The notes beneath the pieces were generated by a model, which saw nothing but the letters and a program-made list of their open reading frames with translations, made no database searches and was not told the DNA's origin. DNA of 64,000 bases, from sequence record KF620435; one strand, given 5' to 3'. The first letter of the stretch is position 1. Every line of letters starts with the position of its first letter. Shown here piece after piece: positions 24,700 through 64,000 of this stretch. This stretch comes from Shigella phage pSb-1. The position numbers and the translations under genes were made by a program.

Positions 24700-24953
24700 G
24701 AACATTAGATAGTTCAACTATTCCGCATAAAAAGTTAAAAGAGATTCCTACTATGAGCAAACTAGAAAACGCATTTATCTTAACTGTTTGTGTACTTGCA
24801 TTGGTTACTTTGGTTTCCGTTCACATTGGAAAACCTCTGGTAAACACTGACTATGGTAATGGTCAAAAAGTAAAATCCATCCTGCTATCAGATAAGTAAA
24901 AACTAAGCTGTTCCACAGCTTACGGATACATTTCAACCAATTAGGAGACATCC

Positions 24954-26163: not shown

Positions 26164-26511
26164 ACACTGCTGTCACATGTCTCACTGTCAGAAGAGTGTG
26201 TACGGAGGAACCAGTGATATTCACTAACATAGAAGATGCCATTGAAGAATGTATCTTTCGTAGGTATCACACTGGTGTACAGAAACGGCACTATGGTGTT
26301 GTGCAACTCAATGGCTATCAAATGGTTGTAAGAATTGTACGTAACAGTAAACCTTTTAACTTTATGTGGAGTACTAAATCATGCGTAAGTCATTAATCAT
26401 GGGAACCAAAGCTGACGTACAAAAGATGAAAGAGCGTCTGGCTGCTAAGCAAAAGACATCTGAACCAGTACGTAAGATTGTTACCTTCAATCATCCATGT
26501 ATCAAATAACT

Positions 26512-26548
26512 AGGAGTCCTCCATTAGGGGGACTTCTATTTTTTATTC
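26512..26548 (+). terminator. hairpin plus T-run terminator candidate
   Basis: AGTCC...GGACT stem followed by TCTATTTTTTATT. Confidence 0.45.
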
Positions 26549-26587: not shown

Positions 26588-26902
26588 TTGAATGAAATTA
26601 TTTGTATACTTCCACATTCAGCTAAGATAGCTGACCGGAATATACGTATCCACTTACCATTCCCTTTAAGCAATCCATTCACTCGTAATGAAAGAACCAC
26701 AGTAGAGGATGTAGAGGTAGCTTATGAAGCTTACCTTCGTAATCGTCTTATTAATGGTGACAAGTTAATTACAGCAGAGATGGAAAGGATTGCTTCCTTT
26801 GTAACAGATAGTACAGGTAAGCCTGTTGGCTTAATTGGTACTGAATCTGATGTTAACGTTATTCGTAAAATACTAATGGAGGCACTAGGTGAACAATCTT
26901 AG
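26588..26902 (+). CDS. hypothetical early protein (104 aa)
   Basis: ORF preceded by AGGAGA. Confidence 0.35.
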   Translation: MNEIICILPHSAKIADRNIRIHLPFPLSNPFTRNERTTVEDVEVAYEAYLRNRLINGDKLITAEMERIASFVTDSTGKPVGLIGTESDVNVIRKILMEALGEQS

Positions 26903-27135
26903 TGATGTCATCGTAGATAAAACAATATTAGTAAATCCCAAAGGGTATGCCTGGTTCATGCTAAAGCATACCCGTAAGGTATATGTTAGATAGGTATATA
27001 TACGTAATTTTAGTAAGTTATCCTACAGAGAAGTACGTATTAATAATGAGATGTACTTTCTGGATGAGTCAGTGATTATCAAATCAACTGAAGACAGAAA
27101 GGCTCCTTACTTTAACTATTACGGATTCAACTAAA

Positions 27136-27357
27136 ATGATGTACTCAACTGATTATGGTCTTTGCCCTGTATGCAACAAACGTAGAGGAGTTGCCAATCA
27201 TAAACGTTGCAGTCGTATCCTACAAAAACGACGGAACCATGAAGAATGGGATAAGATATTGGAAAACCAACACAAAGATGAGTTCAAGCAGATGGCTGTT
27301 AAGGCATCTACTCAGCTCATTCGTCGTACTAACTTCATAGAAGGTTATCAGAAATGA
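27136..27357 (+). CDS. small Cys-containing basic protein (73 aa), possible zinc-ribbon
   Basis: CPVCNKRRG ... HKRCS motif. Confidence 0.3.
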   Translation: MMYSTDYGLCPVCNKRRGVANHKRCSRILQKRRNHEEWDKILENQHKDEFKQMAVKASTQLIRRTNFIEGYQK

Positions 27358-27710
27358 AGCTAATCGTAGCTGGTGGGAGAGACTTCGTAAATACCCAAGT
27401 AATGATTACAGTATTAATGGATTTAGTGGAGAAGGGTAAGATTGACCCTAATCCAGAATTAGTATGTGGTATGGCTCGTGGAGCAGATATGCTTGCATAT
27501 AGCCTATGGGCTAATAACAAAATGACTATTCATAATTTCCCAGCAAACTGGGATAAATATGGAAAATCTGCTGGTTATAGACGTAATCAGGAAATGGGTG
27601 AATTTGCAGACGCTGCTGTATGCTTCTGGGATGGTAATTCCAAAGGAACCAAGCACATGATTGATATCATGAATAGGCTTAATAAACCTGTATACGTTGT
27701 GAGGTATTAG
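27354..27710 (+). CDS. SLOG/DUF2493-like Rossmann protein
   Basis: N-terminal KLIVAGGRDF and overall ~120 aa pattern typical of phage DUF2493 proteins. Confidence 0.45.
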   Translation: MKLIVAGGRDFVNTQVMITVLMDLVEKGKIDPNPELVCGMARGADMLAYSLWANNKMTIHNFPANWDKYGKSAGYRRNQEMGEFADAAVCFWDGNSKGTKHMIDIMNRLNKPVYVVRY

Positions 27711-27965
27711 ATGATTATTACATATCCTACAGGCAAGAACGTGGAATATATGGGACATACTATCCAAGTGCCTCACTGGGTTAAGTATGTAGCACTATTA
27801 CCACGACAGTATAAGAGTGCTAATACCTCACTAATAGGATTCTCTAAGAAGCCTAAGCTAACAGAAAACAATATCTGGGTATCCTCTGGGAGACAAGAAG
27901 AGATTGGTTTCTGTGATTTAAGTATTGTAGATAATAACATCTATGGGACATTGAAAAAGGTATGA
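27711..27965 (+). CDS. hypothetical protein (84 aa)
   Basis: ORF with overlapping start/stop. Confidence 0.3.
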   Translation: MIITYPTGKNVEYMGHTIQVPHWVKYVALLPRQYKSANTSLIGFSKKPKLTENNIWVSSGRQEEIGFCDLSIVDNNIYGTLKKV

Positions 27966-28276
27966 AAACTATTCTAGTAGTTCATGATTCTACATTTACT
28001 GATGTAGATAAGATGATGCGTAATATTGATTATGTATCTCAGACAAGCCAAGCATTCAATGAAGAGTTTACTCTTTACTGTAATGCTGAATCTCCACTGG
28101 TTCCTATCCTTAAGGATTCAGGGCTACCATTCTCTACAGAGAACTTCCCAGAAGAACCGGACTATGTAATTTCATTTATCTATGACTTACATGATGGTTC
28201 TGAAACTAGTGAACTAGCTATGAACCAGTGGCGTAGTAAACGTCCTGTGTTTGCATTTCAGGTACTTAAACCATGA
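27962..28276 (+). CDS. hypothetical protein (104 aa)
   Basis: ORF with overlapping start/stop. Confidence 0.3.
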   Translation: MKTILVVHDSTFTDVDKMMRNIDYVSQTSQAFNEEFTLYCNAESPLVPILKDSGLPFSTENFPEEPDYVISFIYDLHDGSETSELAMNQWRSKRPVFAFQVLKP

Positions 28277-28653
28277 AGATTATGTCATTAGGTAACGACA
28301 CCAATGCTTTACTAGGTGTATCTGCACGTCCAATCATCATTGTTAATAAACATCATGGTAAATCAGGTGAGTATATTGGACGTGGTTCACCATTAGGCAA
28401 TCCATTTGTCATTGGTAAACATGGAACCAGAGAGCAAGTAATTGCTAAGTATAAAGTCTGGTTACAAGATCAGATTGATAAAGGTAATCCAGTTGTACTG
28501 GATGAACTTAATCGTCTGGGTAATAAAGCCATTGACGAGAAAGGGTTAGCCTTACAGTGCTTCTGTTATCCGAAACCATGCCATGGTGAGGTTATTAAAG
28601 AGAAGCTAGTAAAGGCTATGTATAACTACTTTGTAGAAAATCCAAAAGGATAA
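28273..28653 (+). CDS. DUF4326-like protein
   Basis: Motifs GRGSPLGNPF and CFCYPKPCHG. Confidence 0.45.
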   Translation: MKIMSLGNDTNALLGVSARPIIIVNKHHGKSGEYIGRGSPLGNPFVIGKHGTREQVIAKYKVWLQDQIDKGNPVVLDELNRLGNKAIDEKGLALQCFCYPKPCHGEVIKEKLVKAMYNYFVENPKG

Positions 28654-28656
28654 TTC

Positions 28657-29007
28657 ATGAAAGAAATCTTAGTATTCACTACCAATGTACTTGGGCAGCA
28701 TACCAATACTGCTGCCAAACTGGCATATAAGAAGCATGGTGCTCGCTGGGGTATGGCCTATGGTCATTACGGTAATAGCTTTGCCATTCCAGTAAGGGAT
28801 GGCAGTGGTAACCGAATTAAAGAAGGTGCTATCTATGGCTTCGTTGAAGGCTTTATTTCCTATGCATCTACTAATCCACAGTGGGATTTCAAAGTAATGG
28901 AAGATGCCCTTCTGGACCCATACCTGTTCAATAATGTCACTGGCAATGTGCTATTGCCAGAAGCATGGCGTAAATACTTAGGGGATGCTTACAATTATTG
29001 GAGTTAA
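28657..29007 (+). CDS. Rossmann-like protein of unknown function (116 aa)
   Basis: Gly-rich motif FTTNVLGQHTNTAAKLAYKKHGARWGMAYGHYGNSFAIP; family not resolved by eye. Confidence 0.3.
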   Translation: MKEILVFTTNVLGQHTNTAAKLAYKKHGARWGMAYGHYGNSFAIPVRDGSGNRIKEGAIYGFVEGFISYASTNPQWDFKVMEDALLDPYLFNNVTGNVLLPEAWRKYLGDAYNYWS

Positions 29008-29055
29008 AGCTGCTCCGCAGCTTTTGGTTATTAATCACATTTAGGAGAATAAGCG

Positions 29056-29871
29056 ATGTACTCATCTATTGAACATCAGAAGCAACTCGAAAAACTATTC
29101 AATAAAAATCAGCTCTTGCCTCGCATGAGGAAGGAATTCGAGGACTCCGAAGAAATTGACTTTAAGGCATTCGCTGCCTATTTAGAAATTGATTATAAGC
29201 TGCTCATTGATGCAATGGTGCAGATTGCCTTACATAAACGTGCCAACATCCAAACTATGATTGGCTCCCTCATGAGTCACTCAGATGATGCTCAGTACAT
29301 CGCTGATTGTCTGTATAAGATGGCAGAGAATGACTGCTTCAACTATGACCCTACCATCGACATGTTCGGTGTTATCTATGAGATTAGTGAAGATGTTCAG
29401 ATGGAATTGGAAGCATTCCAGTACCCATTGCCCATCGTAAGTGCTCCTAAGCCTGTTAAGTGTAACCGTGATACTGGTTACTACGAAAGCAGGGGCAGCA
29501 TCATCCTCAAGAAGAACCATCATGAGATGGATGTCTGTCTTGACCACATCAACCGCATGAATAACCAACGTCTCTGCATTAACTGGGACGTTGCTAACTA
29601 TGTAAAAGACTCCCGTCCTAACATGGATAAACCTAAAGAAGGTGAAACTCGTCAGGACTATGAGAAACGTGTTAAAGCCTTTGAGAAGTACAGCCGTACT
29701 GCTAAGGAAGTAATGGAGTTAGTGACCAAAGAAGGTAATAACTTCTCCTTGGCTCACAAATACGATAAACGTGGGCGTACATATGCCTGTGGTTACCACA
29801 TAAATTATGCAGGTACTTCATGGAATAAGGCAGTGGTAGAATTCGCACAAAAAGAACTCGTGGAGGACTAA
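29056..29871 (+). CDS. phage RNA polymerase II, small subunit (N-terminal part of a split T7-like single-subunit RNAP)
   Basis: C-terminal KRGRTYACGYHINYAG aligns with T7 RNAP WRGRVYAVSMFNPQG; N4 splits its RNAP II the same way. Confidence 0.6.
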   Translation: MYSSIEHQKQLEKLFNKNQLLPRMRKEFEDSEEIDFKAFAAYLEIDYKLLIDAMVQIALHKRANIQTMIGSLMSHSDDAQYIADCLYKMAENDCFNYDPTIDMFGVIYEISEDVQMELEAFQYPLPIVSAPKPVKCNRDTGYYESRGSIILKKNHHEMDVCLDHINRMNNQRLCINWDVANYVKDSRPNMDKPKEGETRQDYEKRVKAFEKYSRTAKEVMELVTKEGNNFSLAHKYDKRGRTYACGYHINYAGTSWNKAVVEFAQKELVED

Positions 29872-30485
29872 TGAAAATCTGCAAGGACTGTGGGGAAACA
29901 AAAGACCTCACAGAGTTCGTACCAAAATCATCTTGCAAAGACGGTTATGAGGTACGGTGTCGTAAATGTCGAGCCTTAAGGTATAACAAAGCTGACCCAG
30001 TATGTATGTTCAGGAAGACCTATCTAACTCAACTAACTCACTCTATAAAAAGAGGACACCCACCACCCAGCTATTCACTAGAGGATTTCTATGAATGGTT
30101 GGATAAGCAACCAAATATCCATCAACTATGGGATGATTATGTGGCGAGTAACTATGCAAAAGACTACAAACCATCCGTAGACCGTATTAATGACCACAAA
30201 CCATATACTCTAGATAACATTCAGCTAATGTCCTGGAAAGAGAATAGAGATAAAGGAGCACGTAGCAAGAAAGAAGGTAACATTGCCACTGCACAACCCG
30301 TTATCGCCTATCATCTAGATGGTACATTCTATAAAGAATTTGCTACTACAGCAGAAGCTGCACGTCATGTAAGTGGTAGAACGTGGGGTATTATAACAGT
30401 AGCCAATGGCATCCCTGTGAAAGATGGTAGAGGTCATATTTATAACCCCAAAACGTACAAAGGCTTTAAGTGGGCCTGGAAATAA
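29871..30485 (+). CDS. HNH homing endonuclease with C-terminal NUMOD-like DNA-binding motif
   Basis: Cys pairs at N-terminus, HNH-type DRINDHKPYTLDNIQLMSWKEN, then QPVIAYHLDGTFYKEFATTAEAARHVSG. Confidence 0.65.
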   Translation: MKICKDCGETKDLTEFVPKSSCKDGYEVRCRKCRALRYNKADPVCMFRKTYLTQLTHSIKRGHPPPSYSLEDFYEWLDKQPNIHQLWDDYVASNYAKDYKPSVDRINDHKPYTLDNIQLMSWKENRDKGARSKKEGNIATAQPVIAYHLDGTFYKEFATTAEAARHVSGRTWGIITVANGIPVKDGRGHIYNPKTYKGFKWAWK

Positions 30486-30541: not shown

Positions 30542-31758
30542 ATGCAACTGTTAACCGCTCGTGAATACCTGAAAGTAGATATTGCTAATAACTATGGCTT
30601 AGATAAAAAGACATGGGATGAACGTATTAGCTGGTTCGATGAGAATGAAGCTAACCTGCTTAATCTGGTAGATGAAGCTGAAGATTCTGCTCTGTTCTTT
30701 GCTGGTGTAAATGCATGGAAAGATATGAAAGCCGGTAAGCCTATTGGTTATGCTGTAGCTCTGGATGCTACATCATCTGGCTTACAGTTACTGGCCTGCC
30801 TGACTGGTGACCGTTCTGCTGCTGAACTGTGTAACGTAGTTAACTACATGGGAGAGAATGGTAAGCCATTACGTCGTGATGCTTATACAGTCATCTACCA
30901 CAAGATGCTGGACATCCTTGGTGAAGCATCTCGTATTAAACGTAGTGACACTAAGCAGGCAGTTATGACTGCATTCTACGGTTCAGAAGCCAAGCCTAAA
31001 GAAGTATTCGGTGAAGGTATTCGTCTCAAGACTTTTGAAAATGTAATGGAAACTGTTGCTAGTGGTCCTTGGGCACTGAACAAGTTCTTACTGCAATGTG
31101 GTAACCCGGATGCTAACCGTTACATATGGGTACTGCCTGACAACTTCCACGCTGTCATTAAGGTCATGGTTCCAGAAGTACAAACTGTTAACTTCTTAGG
31201 TAAGCCATTCGACATCACTCGTATGGTTCAGGGCACTGAAGAGAAGACTCGTATGCTCTCTGCTAACATCACCCACTCTATTGATGGATGGTGGTACGTG
31301 AGATGCTGCGTCGTTGTAACTTCGACCGTGACTTAGTGGAAGCTGTGCGAGAACTCTGCGATGAAGGTCCATCAGAATATGGGGAAATTGCAGGTAATCT
31401 GGAGAAGGTACAGGAGTTATGGAGCCATTATGAGAAATCTGGCTTCTTATCCTTATCAATCCTGGATTATCTTGACCCATGTACTATTGCTTATGTAGAT
31501 CGTCAGGTAGTAGCAGATATGATTGACACTATGCCTAAGAAACCATTCCCTGTAATGACTGTACACGACTGCTTCCGTTGCCATCCTAACTACGGTAATG
31601 ACCTGCGTCGTCAGTACAATCAGATTCTGTCTGACATTGCTAAGAGTGACCTACTGGGCTTCATCCTGTCTCAGGTACTGGGACAAGAGTTCTCTGCTGG
31701 TAAGCTGGATGACAGCCTCTGGCAGGACATCCTTGAAACAGACTATGCATTAAGTTAA
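30542..31758 (+). CDS. phage RNA polymerase II, large subunit (T7-like palm/fingers), frameshifted (fragments 30542..31336 and 31288..31758)
   Basis: ALDATSSGLQ (motif A), RSDTKQAVMTAFYGS (motif B), VMTVHDCF (motif C); frame change after HSIDG near 31286..31290. Confidence 0.7.
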
Positions 31759-31764
31759 TAAACT

Positions 31765-31799
31765 AGCCTCACTCCCGAAGGAGTGAGGCTTATTTTTTG
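31765..31799 (+). terminator. rho-independent terminator
   Basis: 11-bp stem AGCCTCACTCC-CGAA-GGAGTGAGGCT followed by TATTTTTTG. Confidence 0.65.
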
Positions 31800-56646: not shown

Positions 56647-57200
56647 TGAAAATCCCAATTGTTGGTGCAGACATTAGTCTCCGCAATTGGGGTTTAGCTC
56701 GTGGGATGCTGGACATTGAGTCCGGCGTCTTCGAGCAGGTCGAACTTAAACTGGTTCAAACTGAAGTTGACCACAACAAACAAGTTCGAACCAACTCCAA
56801 AGATATACAAGCCGCTCACGATTTGTTTCTTGGTTGTGAGGAATGGTTACGATCTGCTAAAGCAGTATTCGTAGAAGTACCAGTAGGCTCTCAGTCTGCT
56901 AATGGTATGAAATCCTATGGAGTATGCGTAGGATTAATTGGTGCATTTCGTGCATTGGGTTGTCCAATCTTTGAAGTATCCCCAATTGAAAACAAACTTG
57001 CACTGGTCGGTGATAAAACTGCATCCAAAGACACGATGATTCGTGCTGCTCATGCCATCTATCCCGAAGCCAACTGGCTCACAGATAAGAAAGGTAAACT
57101 TCTGAATAAGAATGAGCACTTAGCTGATGCAATCGGTGCAATCCATGCTGGTGTAAATCTCCCAGCTTTCCAGAACCTTATTAAGTTATTAAAGGCGTAA
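56646..57200 (+). CDS. RuvC-like Holliday junction resolvase candidate
   Basis: N-terminal MKIPIVGADISLRNWGLA resembles the first RuvC catalytic motif. Confidence 0.35.
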   Translation: MKIPIVGADISLRNWGLARGMLDIESGVFEQVELKLVQTEVDHNKQVRTNSKDIQAAHDLFLGCEEWLRSAKAVFVEVPVGSQSANGMKSYGVCVGLIGAFRALGCPIFEVSPIENKLALVGDKTASKDTMIRAAHAIYPEANWLTDKKGKLLNKNEHLADAIGAIHAGVNLPAFQNLIKLLKA

Positions 57201-57201
57201 T

Positions 57202-57645
57202 ATGCAAATCATTTTGAACCAGTCCGAAGTAGAAGCTGCTGTACAGGCTTATGTCGATGATCAAATCAATCTTGCTGGTGACATTAATATTGTCATCAAT
57301 GCAGACGGTACAGCCTCCGTTGGTATCAACGAAGATGTAAGTCATAACGATGATACTCCACCCTTGGTAGAGAAGAAAACTCGCCGTTCTCGTAAGAACC
57401 CTCAAGAAGCTAAACACCGTCCGGTAGAACCAGAGCCGGAAGAAGTAGTTGAAGAGATAAAGGAAGAAGAAACCCAGACCTCTACTGGTGGTCCGAACGG
57501 GAGTTCTACGCCGGAACCTGAAGAAGAAGCAGTAGCTGAACCAGAAGCACAAGAAGAAGTTGTGCAGGAAGAAGTTAAGGCTGAAGAACCAGCAGAGAAA
57601 CCTGCTACTAAGCCTTCACTGTTCGCTGGCCTTAAACGTAGTTAA
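57202..57645 (+). CDS. highly acidic low-complexity protein (147 aa)
   Basis: Glu/Pro-rich tail EPEPEEVVEEIKEEE...EPEEEAVAEPEAQEEVVQEE. Confidence 0.35.
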   Translation: MQIILNQSEVEAAVQAYVDDQINLAGDINIVINADGTASVGINEDVSHNDDTPPLVEKKTRRSRKNPQEAKHRPVEPEPEEVVEEIKEEETQTSTGGPNGSSTPEPEEEAVAEPEAQEEVVQEEVKAEEPAEKPATKPSLFAGLKRS

Positions 57646-57780
57646 TCTGGTAGGTGGCTCAGAAGCTGCTGCTATTTGTGGTAGTGTTCGTAATTCTGAT
57701 GCTATTGCTTATCAGGATTCTGGACGTGTCGGCTCCATACATAGCATTTATCATCACTGTGCTTATACTTTGGAAACTCA

Positions 57781-58050
57781 GTGATAAAAACGGTGGTGAC
57801 AAGCCGCCAGAGTAACAACAACAACCGAACCAGTGTGCAGGAATACTCTCCCCTGTGCATTGGTTCAACTGAGGCTAATATGAACAAATTTACTATTCAC
57901 TGGCTCAATGGGAAGGTTAGTTCTTTCATGGGTGGAGAACCCGTTGAAGGAAAGAAAGCATTTCACATTGAATCAGAAGGCTGCAAAATCTTAGTACCAT
58001 ATGTTTGGTATAAAGATGGTGAAGTAGAAGCATTAAAAAAGAGTAGTTAA
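57781..58050 (+). CDS. hypothetical protein (89 aa)
   Basis: Last plus-strand ORF before the non-coding region. Confidence 0.3.
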   Translation: MIKTVVTSRQSNNNNRTSVQEYSPLCIGSTEANMNKFTIHWLNGKVSSFMGGEPVEGKKAFHIESEGCKILVPYVWYKDGEVEALKKSS

Positions 58051-58222
58051 TATCGTGAAGGGTTCTGTTAGAATCCTTTGAGATAGGAACTCCTATCATA
58101 ACCTTTCTTAACTTAATCTTTGCCGTATGGCACTGACGCTAGGGGTGGCCCCCCATCCGTCAGTCAGACTATTTTAAGAATGGGTTATCACAGAAAATGT
58201 AAAGCAACATTCGGGTTAATCA

Positions 58223-58250
58223 ATGGCCTCTCCCTATAGAGGCCATTTCT
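58223..58250 (+). terminator. hairpin terminator candidate (ATGGCCTCT-CCCTAT-AGAGGCCAT + TTCT)
   Basis: 9-10 bp perfect stem followed by T-rich tract. Confidence 0.5.
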
Positions 58251-58263
58251 GAATCTTAGGCTA

Positions 58264-58291
58264 TATCCCAAAGGTTAGTATCTTTGGGATA
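58264..58291 (+). other. second strong hairpin (ATCCCAAAG-GTTAGTAT-CTTTGGGAT)
   Basis: 9-bp perfect inverted repeat. Confidence 0.5.
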
Positions 58292-58450
58292 AGGCTTCAG
58301 ATCCCTTATCAACTAACGCTCATGTTGAGCACAACATTAACTAATAATGTCGGATAGTTCATTACGCTATTCATTCAGCATCGAGATGTTAGGTCTTACA
58401 TGTAATATAGGGTATAAAGGGAGGATTCGTCCCCTCCTCCTATTATAATG

Positions 58451-58520
58451 GTCGGGGTAGCACGTAGGCATGTGCAGCTGGTCGCTACTTCTCTCGCTGG
58501 TTCGAATCCAGCCCCTGACC
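58451..58520 (+). tRNA. tRNA-like element 1; anticodon arm not foldable by eye
   Basis: 7-bp acceptor GTCGGGG/CCCTGAC, D-arm GCAC-GTAGGCAT-GTGC, T-arm GCTGG-TTCGAAT-CCAGC; only 20 nt between D and T arms with no 5-bp stem. Confidence 0.35.
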
Positions 58521-58789
58521 TACTGACATCCTATCAATGAGTACATTAGGCTAACGTGCGGAGGTTTACACTGTAGCCGGTGTAGGTAGAGAAGACGGCA
58601 GGGTAGCTACCTGTGCTTAGTGTACTCTTTGATAGGTTGTACTATCAAAGTCCAGACGATATCTGAGTGACTATAAAAACAGATGGAGCCAGGTGGAATC
58701 CCTGGCAATTAATTCAAAGTAGCATTGCACTAATCCATCTCGGAATTCAAAGGCCAACCATGGAGCAGTGCTACTTTGAATTAGAAGAA

Positions 58790-58905
58790 TTATGACGGGT
58801 CTGGTGAAGTAGATGGGGTTCGATTCCCTCCGGTGGATAAAACCACTAGCGTGCTTGGTGCACGAATAAGACTTAATACTGGTGGTTCGATTCCATCCCC
58901 CGTTA
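58790..58905 (+). ncRNA. tRNA-like region with two T-arm motifs; boundaries unresolved
   Basis: GGGG-TTCGATT-CCCT at ~58815..58829 and GGTGG-TTCGATT-CCATC at 58881..58897; 13-bp inverted repeat just upstream (58711..58781). Confidence 0.25.
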
Positions 58906-59100
58906 TCCGAAGTCGCCAGGTACTTATGGCAAACGGGTAGTAACGAACTAGTCATTCGTCAAACGCCCACCCAATTATGAGTCAGCAAGAACGCCTTCAC
59001 TTAAACTTAAACAAAAAAGCTTAACGCAATAATTATGTAGGGGTATGTAAGGATTGCGAAGAAGGAGCCAGTTAAAGCCTGGCATGACTCACCTATTTAT

Positions 59101-59185
59101 GCCCACTTAGCTCAATGGTAGAGCGCAGGAAAGCTTCGAGAGAACAAGGTGTCTGTGGTCACTGGTTCGAATCCAGTAGTGGGTA
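59101..59185 (+). tRNA. tRNA-like element 3 (type II length); anticodon arm not foldable by eye
   Basis: Acceptor GCCCACT/AGTGGGT, D-arm GCTC-AATGGTA-GAGC, T-arm ACTGG-TTCGAAT-CCAGT; 35-nt middle with no canonical 5-bp stem. Confidence 0.4.
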
Positions 59186-59412
59186 CTCATTAATAGAGAA
59201 CATAGTCCTGATTGCATTGCACTCTAAAGACAATGCCGGTGAGACAGTCCGGCACTCTAGTTATTGTAAACATGCCTATCGATATGAGTATGAGCAGACT
59301 ATAATGCTCAAATACAGTTATCTATTATCGGACTATCAATCCTGTTTGCTGGTACAAGCACCAGTGGTAATAGTTAACTGGCCTAGCCTCGTTAGCTGCG
59401 TTAAAGCTACTA

Positions 59413-59438
59413 AGTCCCTCTTCGGAGGGACTTTTTTA
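59413..59438 (+). terminator. rho-independent terminator
   Basis: AGTCCCTC-TTCG-GAGGGACT followed by TTTTTT. Confidence 0.6.
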
Positions 59439-59608
59439 TTTGAGTATTAATAATTGGACATTCACTATGATTGACCTAATCTCTACTCCGTATGCCTATG
59501 AGGTAACGGATAACCGAGGGCACAAGTACTTGGTATTTGCAGGTAGCGTAGCCTATAACAACGCAGTCATGTTTAAGTACAAACTCAAACCACTCTATGA
59601 GGCTAATA

Positions 59609-59746
59609 ATGGAATTTGATGATTTAGATTTTGAAGCTATCGAAAAAGCGAACCAAGCAAAACTGGAACAAGCTAACCGTGAAGCTGAAGAACTGGAAAA
59701 TGCCAAAGATAACAATGAATGTACAAGTGGTGGTTGCACTATCTAG
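59609..59746 (+). CDS. small acidic protein (45 aa), below track cutoff
   Basis: ATG 59609, frame checked to TAG 59744..59746; the overlapping minus ORF 59476..59739 is judged spurious. Confidence 0.25.
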   Translation: MEFDDLDFEAIEKANQAKLEQANREAEELENAKDNNECTSGGCTI

Positions 59747-59869
59747 TACAAAAGCGTAAGGTGGTTTTTACCGAAAGGTACTGAACTACCCGACAAAGTA
59801 GTAAGGCTTAAAAAGCCAAAACAAAACAAGCCCTCCTAGTGAGGGCTTTCTCATTTATAGGAAAATAGC

Positions 59870-60103
59870 ATGACACAAGTATCTATTACCTCTGTTGTTC
59901 GTGAGGCCATTCTCAACAATACTGTTCGTACATATTCATTTGATGAAATCGCGGAGAAACTTGGAGTAACTCGTTACGTAGCTAAGAAACTTTACTTCTC
60001 GTTCCTGTGGTTCCCTTCCGAAGAAACATTACGGAAGATTAAAGAGACTGGTAAATTTCCAAGCGAAGGGCGTAAGCCTAAGATGTGGAGAAAATGTGAC
60101 TAA
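59870..60103 (+). CDS. hypothetical protein (77 aa)
   Basis: ATG with AGGAAAA upstream; ends before the bidirectional terminator. Confidence 0.35.
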   Translation: MTQVSITSVVREAILNNTVRTYSFDEIAEKLGVTRYVAKKLYFSFLWFPSEETLRKIKETGKFPSEGRKPKMWRKCD

Positions 60104-60140
60104 ATCATTTACAGCACATCAAGTATGAGTATTAGTAGAA

Positions 60141-60164
60141 GCCCCTCTAATGAGGGGCTTTTTC
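60141..60164. terminator. bidirectional terminator between converging genes
   Basis: GCCCCTC-TAAT-GAGGGGC followed by TTTTTC. Confidence 0.55.
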
Positions 60165-60192
60165 ATTTAGTTAGTGAGGTTGAGCCACGGGT

Positions 60193-63100
60193 TCAGGGTA
60201 TGGGCACGTAAGCCTTGTCCGAAACCGAATGAGTAACCGAGGTTGCCTGTGCAGCAATACTAAAGATGTTGTCCTGAATAGGCAAACCAACGTTACCAAA
60301 CATGGTAGGAGTTGGAGCCAACATAGCCATAGCAGCATGTACTGGGTTATTACGAATCATGGACACTGCAACTTTTGCAGAACGAATCTTAAAGTTGTAG
60401 AACCACATTAAACCAACACTTTCCATATACCCACGGAATCGACCAGGTAAACGGTCATAGTTAATGAACTCTTCCGTTACACGTCCCAGTGCTTCTTCAC
60501 GAGTCTTACCTTTACGCTGGGTCAATTCATCATAGATGATTGCTTTAGCGATAAAGTCAGAGTACTCAACCGTTTTCTGGATACCCTGGAATAGAGCAGT
60601 ATCCTTAGTGAAAAGTGCATAACGACCTGCGTTACGTACAGACTTAGGCAGCTTATCAGCTAGCTTATCCATGTATTCGTGAAGTTTACCTTCAGTAATC
60701 AGGATGTCATCACGACCAATACCAGCATCTGCAATTGAAGAGAACTCACCAGCTTCTAACAGAGGCCAGATACTCAAACGCTTATGGCTATCCGTAATGG
60801 ACTGAATCTCAGCCTTAAGTTTACGAATCTGGTTCGGGTTAGTAGCTGCACGTAATTCTGCTTCTGCATCTACCTGACGAAGTCGAGATTTCAGGTACTG
60901 GTTAATCTCAGCAGTCTTCTGTGGAATGCTCTTAGCAATGTTCTTAACAGGTACACCACGAGCAACCATCTGGTAAAGGTTAGCCAAGAAGTTAACAGCA
61001 GGTACAATCACTGACTTAACTACAATCAGGGTCTTAGCTTCTTTAACTAAGTTTTGAACCAGATTCTCACCACCCATTACATACTTATAGGCACGGTTGC
61101 CAAATACACCCAACATAGCTTTCTTGAAGGTATCCAGTGTTTCTGGGGACCAACGAGAATTACCAGACCAGGCATCCCCAACAGAAGCTGCACGATAACC
61201 CAGAGCATCATTCAGCATGTCACGACGTACCCACAACTCACCTGGGCCAAACAGACTTTCTGCTTTCTGACGTGTTTCACTGTTCATCAGCTTAAGAGCA
61301 TCAGCAGTCACTGGGTCCAGTTTGGAACCAAGAAGGTTCACGTACTGGGACTTATTAGAAGCAGACATCTTAATGTCGTTCTCATACATGCTATACAGGT
61401 TCTCAATTAGCATATCGTTGAAACGCTGAGCCTTAGCCTCTTCTACCTGACGACCACGCCATACACCGATTGCACGGGCAAGATGGTTTTCACCCTCGAT
61501 GTGCTTCAGCATATTAGGGTCAATGGATTGCTCGTAAGCAACCACATTACCATTGGCATCATATACAGGCAGGAGTGGTTCATTACCACGTTCACCACGA
61601 GCCAGTGCTTTAGTGATACGGTCTACGGAAGGCTTGTCAGTGATACGACCAGCTACCATGGTTCCCATAGTAAAGCCTGTACCAAGGTCTACACCACCAG
61701 CAGTATTGCGAACGTTCTGTAAGATACCTTGGGAGAACGGAGCCTGTGCCTGTACTGGTGCAAAGTAGTAGCTACGTGCCGGTCCACGATTAGCAGAGCT
61801 ACCTTGATAAGTGCCCAGTCGTACATAGGATTTTTCAATCAAATCAGCAAACTGACTATCTTCAGCAACAATCAGGTTAACACCTTGTTTGTTCTCACCG
61901 GGAATATACCCTTTGTACTGGTTCAGGGTTGCACGGCTATCAGACTTGGCTTTAGCCATTTCATCTTTACGCTGACCAACCAGGTAAGAAGTAGCAAAGT
62001 CCATGCCTTCAATTTCTGTCTGAGCCAGTGAAGATAACATCTCACGGTCAGTCTTATTCATTGCTTCCAGTGCATACAGGGTAATGAGTTTATCCAGTTG
62101 AGCTACGTCTACAGTAGAACGTGTAGTCTTACGTTCACCCAGCAAGCGAGAAATTGCAGTAGCATTACGCAGCAGGTTATTACCGACTGTACCGTTAATC
62201 ATGTACTGAGCCAGTTGCTTAGATTTACGGCTAATCAGGGGCCAGTTACGCCCTGCTTGTTTCTGCAAATCTGCTTCCAGTTTATTAACTTCACGGTCAA
62301 CAATCTTCTGGTCAGTCAGCAAGTCACGGATTTCAGCCAGAGACATAGTATCACGCAGGACAGCTAAGTCAGTTTTACCCATGCCAGTATGCATTGCTTT
62401 CCACTCTTCATTAGTCAGTTTACGACTGAACTTAGATGCGATAGTGGTAGGCAAGTGTTCACGGAACTGTTGACGGTCAGCTTGTACCTGTGCACGAACT
62501 GCCTTAATCAAATCGTATACAGAAGCATTGCTCTTAGTACGTCCAATTATGTCATTAACCAGGTCATGGAAAGGTTGCCATACTTTACCCTGGTTCATTG
62601 CAGCCATAACACCTTCCGCTACGATTGAACCATTCTTCTCTGTAGCAATAGCAGCTATCAGTTGTGCAGCATGAGCAGCACCTTTAACCAACGGGTTTTT
62701 GGTATTAGCTGCAACTTCACGAGCACCTTCCAATGCACGGGTAGACAGTACATCAATAGAGTCCACCAGATACTGGTTAGCACGGTCAATAGCATTACCG
62801 GTAGGAGTAGCAACGGAATCATAGAAGGACTCTGCATTAAGACTGGTCTGCATGATTGTCTGAGCCAGTGCATCCATACCTTCCTGTACGTTAGTGGCTT
62901 TAGTATCACCTGCTACACGAGCATTCAGACTAGCCATTGCAGCAGTACCGATGTTAGTCAGCATTGCATCAACGGTATTACCTGATTTCTTATCTGCTTT
63001 CATAACAGGAATGTCAGCCAGTACTTTACGTACCTCTTCACTTACCATTGCCAGGCCAACAAAGGTAGGCAGTAAGGAAGAACGACCCTGTGCATCAAAC

Positions 63101-63879
63101 TCAATGTTGTTAGCACCCATGATGGTATCGAACCTCTGCTGTGCATAATAACGGTCAGCAGGGTTAGTACTATCTGGGTCAGACATGAACGCTTCAACAG
63201 TCAGGTTCTTAGTAACATGTGTGTAGTATTCCTGTGCACGAGCCAAAGCAGCTGGATTAATAGCAGCCTCGGTAGCCAGTGCAGCAACAATATTAGTGAA
63301 GAGACGTTGTTCCTGCATATTCATAGTGAAACCATGAGCCTGAACATCACGAGTTACTTTAGTTGCATTCACTACTGCATCAGAGAACTTACCTTTACGA
63401 ATTACTTGCTGTACTGGCTCTGAACCAATGTAGTCAGTAATCAGCTTATCGAAGGTCTTACCTAGCTCTTCCAGACGGGTATTGTCACCGTATGCTTTGT
63501 TATGGAACAGAGTAGTGTCTTTGGCTACAGCAGCAGTAGGAGCTTGTCCACGCATAACTACAGCAGAGTTAAACAGTAAGCCAGAGAACATATCATCTGC
63601 ATTAGCAGGAGCTTTCTTACGTCCAAATATCAGACGTTTGATTGCTTCATATACAGCCTGAACCATAGTTTTAAGTGCAGTGGTTTTCTTCTGCTTACTA
63701 ATAAGTTCACGGTTAGTTAAGCCCCAAGCCATGTACTCATTCAGTGCAGCAGCTTTAGCCATTGCTGGTTCAATGAAGCCATTAGACAAGTGACCATTAA
63801 TGGTATTCAGTGCATCAGCATATGCTTCACGTACTGCCGGAGATTCATCCTTAACATCCAGAGAACGGAACTGGTTCAT
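60193..63879 (-). CDS. giant virion protein (1228 aa); probably the C-terminal region of the virion-encapsidated RNA polymerase (N4 gp50 position)
   Basis: Last minus-strand gene, convergent with end of early block as in N4; frame is open 14 codons upstream of its ATG and overlaps the end of an upstream ORF. Confidence 0.4.
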   Translation of the reverse strand: MNQFRSLDVKDESPAVREAYADALNTINGHLSNGFIEPAMAKAAALNEYMAWGLTNRELISKQKKTTALKTMVQAVYEAIKRLIFGRKKAPANADDMFSGLLFNSAVVMRGQAPTAAVAKDTTLFHNKAYGDNTRLEELGKTFDKLITDYIGSEPVQQVIRKGKFSDAVVNATKVTRDVQAHGFTMNMQEQRLFTNIVAALATEAAINPAALARAQEYYTHVTKNLTVEAFMSDPDSTNPADRYYAQQRFDTIMGANNIEFDAQGRSSLLPTFVGLAMVSEEVRKVLADIPVMKADKKSGNTVDAMLTNIGTAAMASLNARVAGDTKATNVQEGMDALAQTIMQTSLNAESFYDSVATPTGNAIDRANQYLVDSIDVLSTRALEGAREVAANTKNPLVKGAAHAAQLIAAIATEKNGSIVAEGVMAAMNQGKVWQPFHDLVNDIIGRTKSNASVYDLIKAVRAQVQADRQQFREHLPTTIASKFSRKLTNEEWKAMHTGMGKTDLAVLRDTMSLAEIRDLLTDQKIVDREVNKLEADLQKQAGRNWPLISRKSKQLAQYMINGTVGNNLLRNATAISRLLGERKTTRSTVDVAQLDKLITLYALEAMNKTDREMLSSLAQTEIEGMDFATSYLVGQRKDEMAKAKSDSRATLNQYKGYIPGENKQGVNLIVAEDSQFADLIEKSYVRLGTYQGSSANRGPARSYYFAPVQAQAPFSQGILQNVRNTAGGVDLGTGFTMGTMVAGRITDKPSVDRITKALARGERGNEPLLPVYDANGNVVAYEQSIDPNMLKHIEGENHLARAIGVWRGRQVEEAKAQRFNDMLIENLYSMYENDIKMSASNKSQYVNLLGSKLDPVTADALKLMNSETRQKAESLFGPGELWVRRDMLNDALGYRAASVGDAWSGNSRWSPETLDTFKKAMLGVFGNRAYKYVMGGENLVQNLVKEAKTLIVVKSVIVPAVNFLANLYQMVARGVPVKNIAKSIPQKTAEINQYLKSRLRQVDAEAELRAATNPNQIRKLKAEIQSITDSHKRLSIWPLLEAGEFSSIADAGIGRDDILITEGKLHEYMDKLADKLPKSVRNAGRYALFTKDTALFQGIQKTVEYSDFIAKAIIYDELTQRKGKTREEALGRVTEEFINYDRLPGRFRGYMESVGLMWFYNFKIRSAKVAVSMIRNNPVHAAMAMLAPTPTMFGNVGLPIQDNIFSIAAQATSVTHSVSDKAYVPIP

Positions 63880-64000
63880 CAGGTCTTCAATATTCTGAAC
63901 GGCTTCATTAGGAGTGCTTCATAATGAGCCAGTACAGATTCAAAGGTAGAAGCATGTACCAATTCATGAACCAGAGTCTCTAAGGAAGGGGTAACTAAGT
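63879..64000 (-). CDS. 3' end of an upstream minus-strand ORF (partial); either separate virion gene or upstream part of vRNAP
   Basis: Frame open from window edge to TGA at 63881..63879, overlapping the ATG of the 1228-aa ORF (TGATG). Confidence 0.3.
   Translation of the reverse strand, partial: LVTPSLETLVHELVHASTFESVLAHYEALLMKPFRILKT

Follow-up and report, generated by a model that had tools for sequence, protein, structure and literature searches.

An early gene cluster of Shigella phage pSb-1 combines SLOG, DUF4326 and macro-like protein families that are repeatedly fused to one another

We analyzed a stretch of 64,000 nucleotides (nt) of Shigella phage pSb-1 (sequence record KF620435; the whole stretch is called the window here) and concentrated on a run of five small genes, p1 to p5, at positions 27354-29007. 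A sequence-only reading of this DNA had described the run as an early cluster of overlapping genes for SLOG/DUF2493-like, DUF4326-like and Rossmann-like proteins and as a plausible counter-defence module. All five open reading frames (ORFs) were found at this place on the plus strand, and the sequence motifs quoted for them were present. Gene p1 (27354-27710) encodes 118 amino acids (aa) starting with MKLIVAGGRDF, p2 (27711-27965) encodes 84 aa, p3 (27962-28276) 104 aa, p4 (28273-28653) 126 aa with the motifs GRGSPLGNPF and CFCYPKPCHG, and p5 (28657-29007) 116 aa. The genes overlap at two of the junctions, each time by 4 nt (ATGA, at 27962 and 28273), but p1 and p2 directly abut (27710/27711) and p4 and p5 are separated by a gap of 3 nt (28653/28657). 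The tight packing with the 4-nt overlaps suggests coupled expression. All five genes showed purifying selection (pairwise dN/dS of 0.01-0.36 against relatives) and each of them matched a PHROG family; we therefore concluded that all five are real genes. All five ORFs have full length relative to their homologs.

The window represents a Gamaleyavirus, a G7C/N4-like coliphage of the Schitoviridae. The 2.6 kb around the cluster matched 76 deposited phages with 80-93% identity, nearly all of them Escherichia phages of the genus Gamaleyavirus (Schitoviridae, N4-like). The cluster belongs to the early region at the left end of the genome and immediately precedes the RNAP1 gene (homolog of N4 gp15; 29056..29871, plus strand; phrog_2166 at 4.7e-115, with synteny in N4-like loci). 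As in N4 and G7C, the five genes lie between gp9 and gp15/RNAP1, and this synteny with both phages bore out the placement as early genes. Judged by homology, the cluster is the right-hand part of an N4-type early region, with homologs of N4 gp9, gp11, gp12 and gp14 and an extra SLOG gene. The cluster is probably expressed from the earliest transcripts of infection; the N4 virion polymerase reads gp1, gp2, gp15 and gp16 as early genes (PMC13434306). Annotation pipelines already name cluster members "DprA", "DUF4326" or "ADP-ribosylglycohydrolase".

The assignment of p1 to SLOG/DUF2493 was confirmed by a match to Pfam PF10686 (YspA SLOG) with 39 bits against a cut-off of 28.2 (E 7.1e-10). This match spans the whole 66-position model, and one phage homolog of p1 carries the annotation DUF2493. 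The protein also matched phrog_289 (6.5e-31), and its closest phage match was from EC1-UPM (98%). We aligned p1 with four stand-alone phage homologs and seven SLOG domains from fusion proteins, which resulted in a clade set of 12 sequences. The residues of all 17 invariant columns are kept in p1 (A6, G7, R9, G39, A41, G43, D45, P63, A64, W66, G74, R77, N78, M81, S96, G98 and M102), and the motifs AGGR, GxARGxD, PAxW, RN (R77-N78) and SxGT (S96-x-G98-T99) are intact. We classify p1 as a stand-alone SLOG protein of the YspA/DUF2493 clade. YspA-type SLOG proteins occur in approximately 970 phage records. A profile search of the PDB with p1 gave a match to DprA as the best result; since this match was weak (E 0.02) and stood alone, p1 has no close relative with a solved structure. 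The arrangement described for the DprA/SLOG-like phage protein ORF83, RN followed by T-x-D/S/H about 21 residues later, is also present in p1, and the spacing R77-N78...T99-x-H101 is identical in p1 and its Tunisvirus homolog.

The product of p4, a homolog of N4 gp12, was likewise correctly labelled as DUF4326 (PF14216, 78.9 bits against a cut-off of 25, E 4.8e-22). This family has approximately 1,400 phage records. A search with p4 alone recovered only near-identical Gamaleyavirus proteins and was repeated with a profile of distant DUF4326 members. All nearly invariant residues of a 125-sequence DUF4326 alignment are present in p4, namely Y34-I-G-R, S39-P-L-G-N-P and C96-x-C98-x-P100-x-x-C103-H104-G105, and the signatures YIGRGSPLGNP and CxCxPxxCHG are intact. 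The invariant Cys/His loop looks catalytic or metal-binding. In the structural model of p4, the Cys/His motif sits on a strand-loop-helix element, and the closest fold was that of the C-terminal domain of RapZ, followed by Cys-phosphatases. This fold match weakly backs a phosphate-binding site in p4. DUF4326 was proposed to be a member of the rhodanese-phosphatase superfamily (PMC9503650).

A sixth relevant gene lies upstream of the five that had been described. It is found on the plus strand at 26588..26902, encodes a homolog of N4 gp9 with 104 aa (phrog_464 at 4.9e-17) and represents a degenerate DUF4326 paralog, which reached 17 bits and an E value of 0.0099 against Pfam DUF4326 and remained under the cut-off. 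GRGSPLGNPF of p4 corresponds to HLPFPLSNPF in this protein, and GLIGTESDVN replaces CFCYPKPCHG, by which all Cys/His residues are lost. Purifying selection persists, with dN/dS values of 0.09-0.13.

The description of p5 as a Gly-rich Rossmann-like protein had to be replaced. The protein is a homolog of N4 gp14 (48% identity) and belongs to the NCBIfam family A1S_2505 (NF049995, phage non-structural proteins; 83.2 bits against a cut-off of 45, E 1.4e-23), and its structural model matched macrodomains instead of Rossmann folds. Two independent programs returned TARG1/DarG-type macrodomains as the best structural matches of the model, with moderate Z and TM scores, and p5 is accordingly predicted to have a Macro fold. 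A Pfam search with p5 gave no match at E ≤ 10, including Macro (PF01661). We also considered p5 as a relative of AdfM of phage T4 and rejected this at the sequence level, as profile comparison gave a probability of 0.7%. T4 Tk.4 (AdfM) itself matches PF01661.

The consensus of the A1S_2505/gp14 family contains two glycine-rich motifs, FGSNxAGxHGAGAA and TRIGCGLAG. The first is degraded to FTTNVLGQHTNTAA in p5, and the second is missing due to a deletion of 9 residues that is common to the whole G7C-type clade. Since many independent sequences have the deletion, it is not a sequence error. The clade member P0008 has an intact first motif together with the deletion, which suggests that the deletion came first. 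Other invariant residues of the family (N10, H15, K26, H27, R30, Y38, N40 and S41) are kept in p5. Macrodomains hold ADP-ribose by two glycine-rich loops, which contact the diphosphate and the distal ribose. From the resemblance of the motifs we infer that those of the p5 family are these two loops. With both motifs degraded or deleted, p5 may not be an enzyme.

Both glycine-rich motifs are kept in long alleles such as that of N4. The long N4-type gp14 allele has approximately 128 aa, the short allele 116-119 aa. At the same position in Gamaleyavirus-like genomes, loci L013 and L014 have the long allele and loci L001-L007 the short one; two gp14 alleles therefore circulate. The flanking genes are approximately 90% identical, which suggests that gp14 alleles were replaced by recombination.

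Evidence for a connection between the three families came from fusion proteins. A profile of the p5 family retrieved 4,849 metagenome cluster representatives at E ≤ 0.001, and 60 proteins of at least approximately 190 aa, drawn from the best 150 profile matches, were scanned with Pfam. The PF10686 SLOG domain was present in 10 of these 60 long family members, a DprA-type SLOG domain in four, NADAR in two and DUF4326 in one; Macro was found in none of them at E ≤ 0.001. With p1, p4 and p5 of the window as phmmer queries, nine fusions of macro-like and SLOG domains were identified, with the two domains in one or the other order. All three families are joined in one of them, P0214, with DUF4326 at residues 14-82, the macro-like domain at 91-203 and SLOG at 210-309; its DUF4326 and SLOG domains were confirmed with Pfam. 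Further cases were found in phages that do not belong to the N4 group. In the crAss-like phage cr116_1 (locus L036, 1046-8249), a protein of 2508 aa has the ADP-ribosyltransferase domain ART-PolyVal at residues 248-376 and a macro-like domain of the gp14 type near residue 985 and is a possible writer-plus-eraser polyvalent protein. In a Bacillus phage the macro-like domain is fused to a weak DprA-type match, and in a Rhodobacter phage a YspA SLOG gene lies 3 kb from a macro-like gene. The repeated fusion of the same three families, once as a triple, would be very unlikely without a functional link. As far as fusions can tell, SLOG, DUF4326 and gp14-type macro-like proteins probably work together, on one substrate.

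Viral fusions of SLOG, Macro, NADAR and DUF4326 were reported before, and joint processing of ADP-ribose derivatives was predicted for them (PMC9503650; PMC7824862). The literature link of these families to NAD/ADP-ribose processing that the sequence-only reading had mentioned is thus real, in the form of these predictions. Our searches reproduced the published fusion pattern independently for the gp14/A1S_2505 family, which lies outside Pfam Macro.

We also compared the gene content at this position between relatives. With the p5 profile, 26 viral loci were fetched, 23 of which also contain RNAP1. The gp14-like gene was located upstream of RNAP1 in all 23, in most of them directly adjacent. 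The p5 family is present in 299 phage records compared to 466 for RNAP1. Counted by organism name, the two numbers are equal in Achromobacter, Pectobacterium and Stenotrophomonas and nearly so in Escherichia (66 versus 69); Vibrio has 107 RNAP1 records, yet it is not among the organisms listed for the p5 family. PBM-2, 24-32N, EC1-UPM and N4-like phages at a greater evolutionary distance have the SLOG gene. It is missing from G7C, IME11 and several further phages with approximately 90% identity in the flanking genes. Some loci lack DUF4326, and in some relatives extra small ORFs (gp11.1, an endonuclease) are found between the genes.

Less information was gained on the remaining genes. The p2 protein is a homolog of G7C gp9.2 (phrog_1972 at 2.1e-19), and all 12 homologs that we recovered came from N4-like loci; Pfam, NCBIfam and PADLOC gave no match. 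The p3 protein is a homolog of N4 gp11 (phrog_7827 at 1.4e-59; dN/dS of 0.01-0.18) and was found in 97 phage records, all from Escherichia/Shigella, Klebsiella, Erwinia or Gamaleyavirus phages. From the pattern of its sequence, p3 may be a small alpha/beta protein; a PDB profile search gave no significant match, and Pfam and NCBIfam were uninformative. A further early ORF of 73 aa (27136..27357, plus strand), a homolog of G7C gp9.1 with CxxC...HxxC spacing, precedes the cluster and overlaps the start of p1 by 4 nt (phrog_6887 at 1.4e-42; dN/dS of 0.09-0.21). Searches of the PDB with the single sequences of p1, p4 and p5 resulted in chance-level matches only, and profile searches with p4 and p5 gave no significant match.

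A terminator-like hairpin with a 12-bp stem followed by a T run is located on the plus strand at 26511..26538, before the gp9-like gene. It closes the preceding early unit and is likely the left boundary of the transcription unit of the cluster. The next strong terminator-like site on the plus strand was found after RNAP2 (31765-31790), and there was none inside the block. Between p5 and RNAP1, a conserved hairpin with a 7-bp stem and a 3-nt loop, AAGCTGCTCCGCAGCTT, is present at 29007..29023. A second copy at 24905-24921 has a compensatory change from T-A to C-G at the top of the stem, and both copies follow the 17-nt palindromic consensus AAGCTG(T/C)TCC(A/G)CAGCTT. The same hairpin was found upstream of RNAP1 in six related loci (L001, L002, L006, L013, L014 and N4). 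We regard it as a candidate for an N4-type virion RNA polymerase (vRNAP) promoter or for a boundary of early units; its template-strand loop GGA fits the promoters of the N4 virion polymerase. Between 24000 and 33000, matches to sigma-70-like promoters were depleted (5 found versus 24.4 expected), as expected for a region that is read by phage polymerases. Terminator-like hairpins were enriched in the same interval (19 found versus 5.1 expected).

The annotated genomes of G7C, PBM-2 and 24-32N begin approximately 2.7-3.7 kb upstream of the genes equivalent to the cluster; compared to these records, the window is therefore rotated and passes across the ends of the genome. These ends lie near 24.2-24.6 kb, and the assembly is rotated or concatemeric. 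The first 24 kb of the window hold the structural genes, which related genomes have at their right end, and the left-end early region begins near 24.6 kb. An HNH/endonuclease VII-type homing endonuclease gene (29871-30485) lies between RNAP1 and RNAP2, as in G7C (gene 15.1); PBM-2 and 24-32N lack it at this place. Compared with PBM-2, the RNAP2 gene itself (homolog of N4 gp16, 30542-31758) is missing one base of a GGG stretch near 31285 and is thereby split into the overlapping ORFs 30542-31336 and 31288-31758. The gene is essential, and the loss probably arose during sequencing or assembly. The vRNAP gene (60193-64000, minus strand) loses its frame near 63915 by a 1-nt deletion relative to 24-32N. 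The ORF at 26889-27134, which is 98% identical to the intact 81-aa PBM2_08, has an in-frame TAG (26991-26993) where the relative has Lys and is a pseudogene or a sequence error. The three defects together suggest errors of sequencing or assembly in these other parts of the window.

An anti-signalling hotspot of N4-like phages was described between the primase-polymerase and vRNAP genes (preprint 10.64898/2026.06.04.730250). We rejected the assignment of the cluster to this hotspot, which corresponds to approximately 57.2-60.2 kb in the window. The hotspot region (57200-60190, from a RuvC-like gene to vRNAP) is variable, and the ORFs of the window in it gave no Pfam match. In 24-32N the hotspot has a DUF2829 gene and a gene annotated as anti-CRISPR; the window has no DUF2829 gene. 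We take DUF2829 to be the domain of the Thoeris inhibitor Tad2. A phage ADP-ribosyltransferase, as a writer/eraser partner, was not annotated in positions 1-57,000 of the 73,312 of the 24-32N record, and the ORFs of the window were not all scanned for it.

Our favored reading is that p1, p4 and p5 form a linked set that acts early on one substrate containing ADP-ribose, or on a related ribonucleotide, and that its purpose is counter-defence. We put it forward tentatively, with a chance of being right that falls a little short of even. Our computations show that the genes are real, closely packed and early by synteny, and they provide the family assignments, the fold matches and the fusions; the shared substrate, the division of labor and the counter-defence purpose are all points that we infer. 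According to this proposal, the macro-like p5 would recognize the ADP-ribose moiety, the SLOG protein p1 would bind the nucleotide or cut the bond between base and ribose, and the Cys/His loop of p4 would handle the ribose-linked phosphate. By this, host ADP-ribose adducts might be removed, or NAD-derived immune signals destroyed, before replication starts; DarT-type DNA ADP-ribosylation and TIR/Thoeris-type signals would be examples of targets. The counter-defence reading of the cluster is plausible and was already predicted in the literature.

Several results weigh against this reading. One candidate glycine-rich loop of p5 is without its glycines and the other is deleted, which makes canonical ADP-ribose binding by p5 doubtful if the motifs equal the macrodomain loops. 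The p5 protein is without profile similarity to T4 AdfM, and nothing connects p2 and p3 with the ADP-ribose theme. No match for the cluster was obtained with PADLOC, and no phenotype is reported in the searchable literature for the cluster genes or for N4 gp9, gp11, gp12 and gp14. The distribution of p5 looks more like that of a core early gene than that of a patchy anti-defence gene. The genes for SLOG, DUF4326 and gp11 come and go independently among close relatives, and a five-gene "module" therefore overstates the coherence of the cluster. The earlier interpretation is borne out in part. As judged from their altered motifs, p5 and the gp9-like paralog may be binders or have a changed function rather than being enzymes.

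The three families could instead serve the nucleotide pool. The SLOG protein would then be a LOG-like phosphoribohydrolase for (modified) nucleoside monophosphates, DUF4326 and the macro-like protein would process the ribose-phosphate by-products, and the whole would support the nucleotide supply of the phage. Such a role is in agreement with the position of DUF4326 as nrdA.1 beside the ribonucleotide reductase (RNR) genes of T4-like phages, with the occurrence of a macro-like gene among thyX, RNR, PhoH, polymerase and exonuclease genes in Pseudomonas phage IME180 and Rhodobacter phage RcPeripeteia, and with the hydrolysis of AMP by solved SLOG relatives of the LOG family (summarized in preprint 10.1101/2025.06.06.658234). 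We nevertheless consider it unlikely, since the dCTP deaminase, thymidylate synthase and pyrophosphohydrolase genes of the closely related phage 24-32N are located well downstream in the middle region, the NADAR fusions and the polyvalent protein with an ADP-ribosyltransferase domain point to ADP-ribose, and the genes are dispensable among close relatives. Binding of single-stranded DNA or RNA would be another common denominator: SLOG, DUF4326 and the degenerate macro-like protein would then aid transcription, replication or host takeover without any ADP-ribose chemistry. DprA was the best PDB profile match of p1 and the RapZ C-terminal domain the best fold match of p4, p5 and the gp9-like paralog lost motifs while purifying selection is still acting, and the gp14-like gene, with a family of approximately 300 phage records, usually lies immediately upstream of RNAP1. 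The match to DprA is however weak (E 0.02), and p1 has those nucleotide-loop residues that are typical of SLOG domains with catalytic or ligand-binding activity. In DUF4326, the invariant Cys/His loop has the appearance of a catalytic or metal-binding site, and in published work on N4 it is gp1 and gp2, not gp9-gp14, that are given as cofactors of RNAPII (PMC13434306). All this leaves a nucleic acid-binding role rather improbable.

It also has to be considered that the five genes have no joint function and are an accidental run of mosaic early ORFs at an accessory site of N4-like phages. The variation between relatives would fit: G7C, IME11 and others have no SLOG gene despite neighboring genes with approximately 90% identity, gp11.1 or an endonuclease gene is inserted between the genes, DUF4326 is missing in some loci, and p2 and p3 are not detectably tied to the other three. 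Repeated fusions of the same three families, including the triple one, would however be very improbable if no functional link existed, and the close packing of the genes, with overlaps of 4 nt, points to a coupling of their expression. We therefore assign a low probability to it. A more far-reaching version of the ADP-ribose hypothesis assumes one new three-step pathway that dismantles an ADP-ribose host weapon. The macro-like protein would release or recognize the adduct, SLOG would remove the base and the Cys loop of DUF4326 would remove the ribose phosphate; the motif-less gp14 of the G7C clade and the Cys-less gp9 paralog would be non-catalytic decoys or sponges that capture this very molecule. 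We regard this version as speculative and would be surprised to see it confirmed in full. If it is true, N4-like coliphages offer a tractable route to a first function for DUF4326 and A1S_2505.

The block as such is already known from N4 and is shared by over 70 deposited genomes, its proposed function has been published as a computational prediction, and the cluster is not a new kind of system. New are the fusion evidence for gp14/A1S_2505 including the triple fusion, the two alleles of gp14 and the loss of motifs within the G7C clade, the degenerate gp9 paralog and the RapZ-like fold match of DUF4326. For DUF4326, phage YspA-type SLOG and gp14/A1S_2505, we found no experimentally assigned function in the searchable literature. 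The cluster is suited to testing whether the three families reverse ADP-ribosylation or destroy NAD-derived signals. E. coli K-12 is a host for N4-like coliphages, and nature already provides variants of them with or without SLOG and with long or short gp14, which makes these phages a convenient place for such a test.

The network described by Iyer, Burroughs, Anantharaman and Aravind in 2022 (PMC9503650; jumbo-phage survey PMC7824862) comprises the same families, follows the same logic of fusions and gene neighborhoods and also includes early deployment. It is computational, and the early cluster of N4 is not described there. In contrast to the Macro members of that network, the macro-like protein of the present cluster is degenerate and falls outside Pfam Macro. 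Experiments are available for two proteins of phage T4: the macrodomain protein AdfM (Tk.4) counters DarTG2 (preprint 10.1101/2025.11.20.689424), and the NADAR protein AdfN, which also stands alone, counters DarTG1 (PMC11825919). AdfM is a small stand-alone phage protein like p5. Macrodomains of the DarG/TARG1 type are the closest structures to the p5 model, yet p5 is without a Pfam Macro match at the sequence level.

ORF83 is, like p1, a small stand-alone SLOG protein of a phage. The EVADES preprint (10.1101/2025.06.06.658234) lists it among inhibitors of type III Avs and describes homologs of it in amoeba viruses that are fused to DUF4326. The pocket pattern of ORF83 is RN...T-x-D, and p1 has R77-N78...T99-x-H101 with the same spacing; this suggests a kinship as far as the description of ORF83 allows the comparison. 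For p4, the RapZ C-terminal domain and the Cys-based phosphatases (PTP/DUSP/PTEN) are similar in fold and without sequence similarity. The Cys-based phosphatases have a CX5R motif, whereas p4 has CxCxPxxCH.

The closest systems are those of N4 and G7C. N4 gp9, gp11, gp12 and gp14 and their counterparts in G7C are orthologs of the genes described here and directly precede RNAP1 (gp15), with the gene order unchanged. Both phages are without a SLOG gene, whereas the present phage has p1. The small ORF gp11.1 of G7C is absent here, and while N4 gp14 is of the long form, the gp14 of the present phage is the short allele without TRIGCGLAG.

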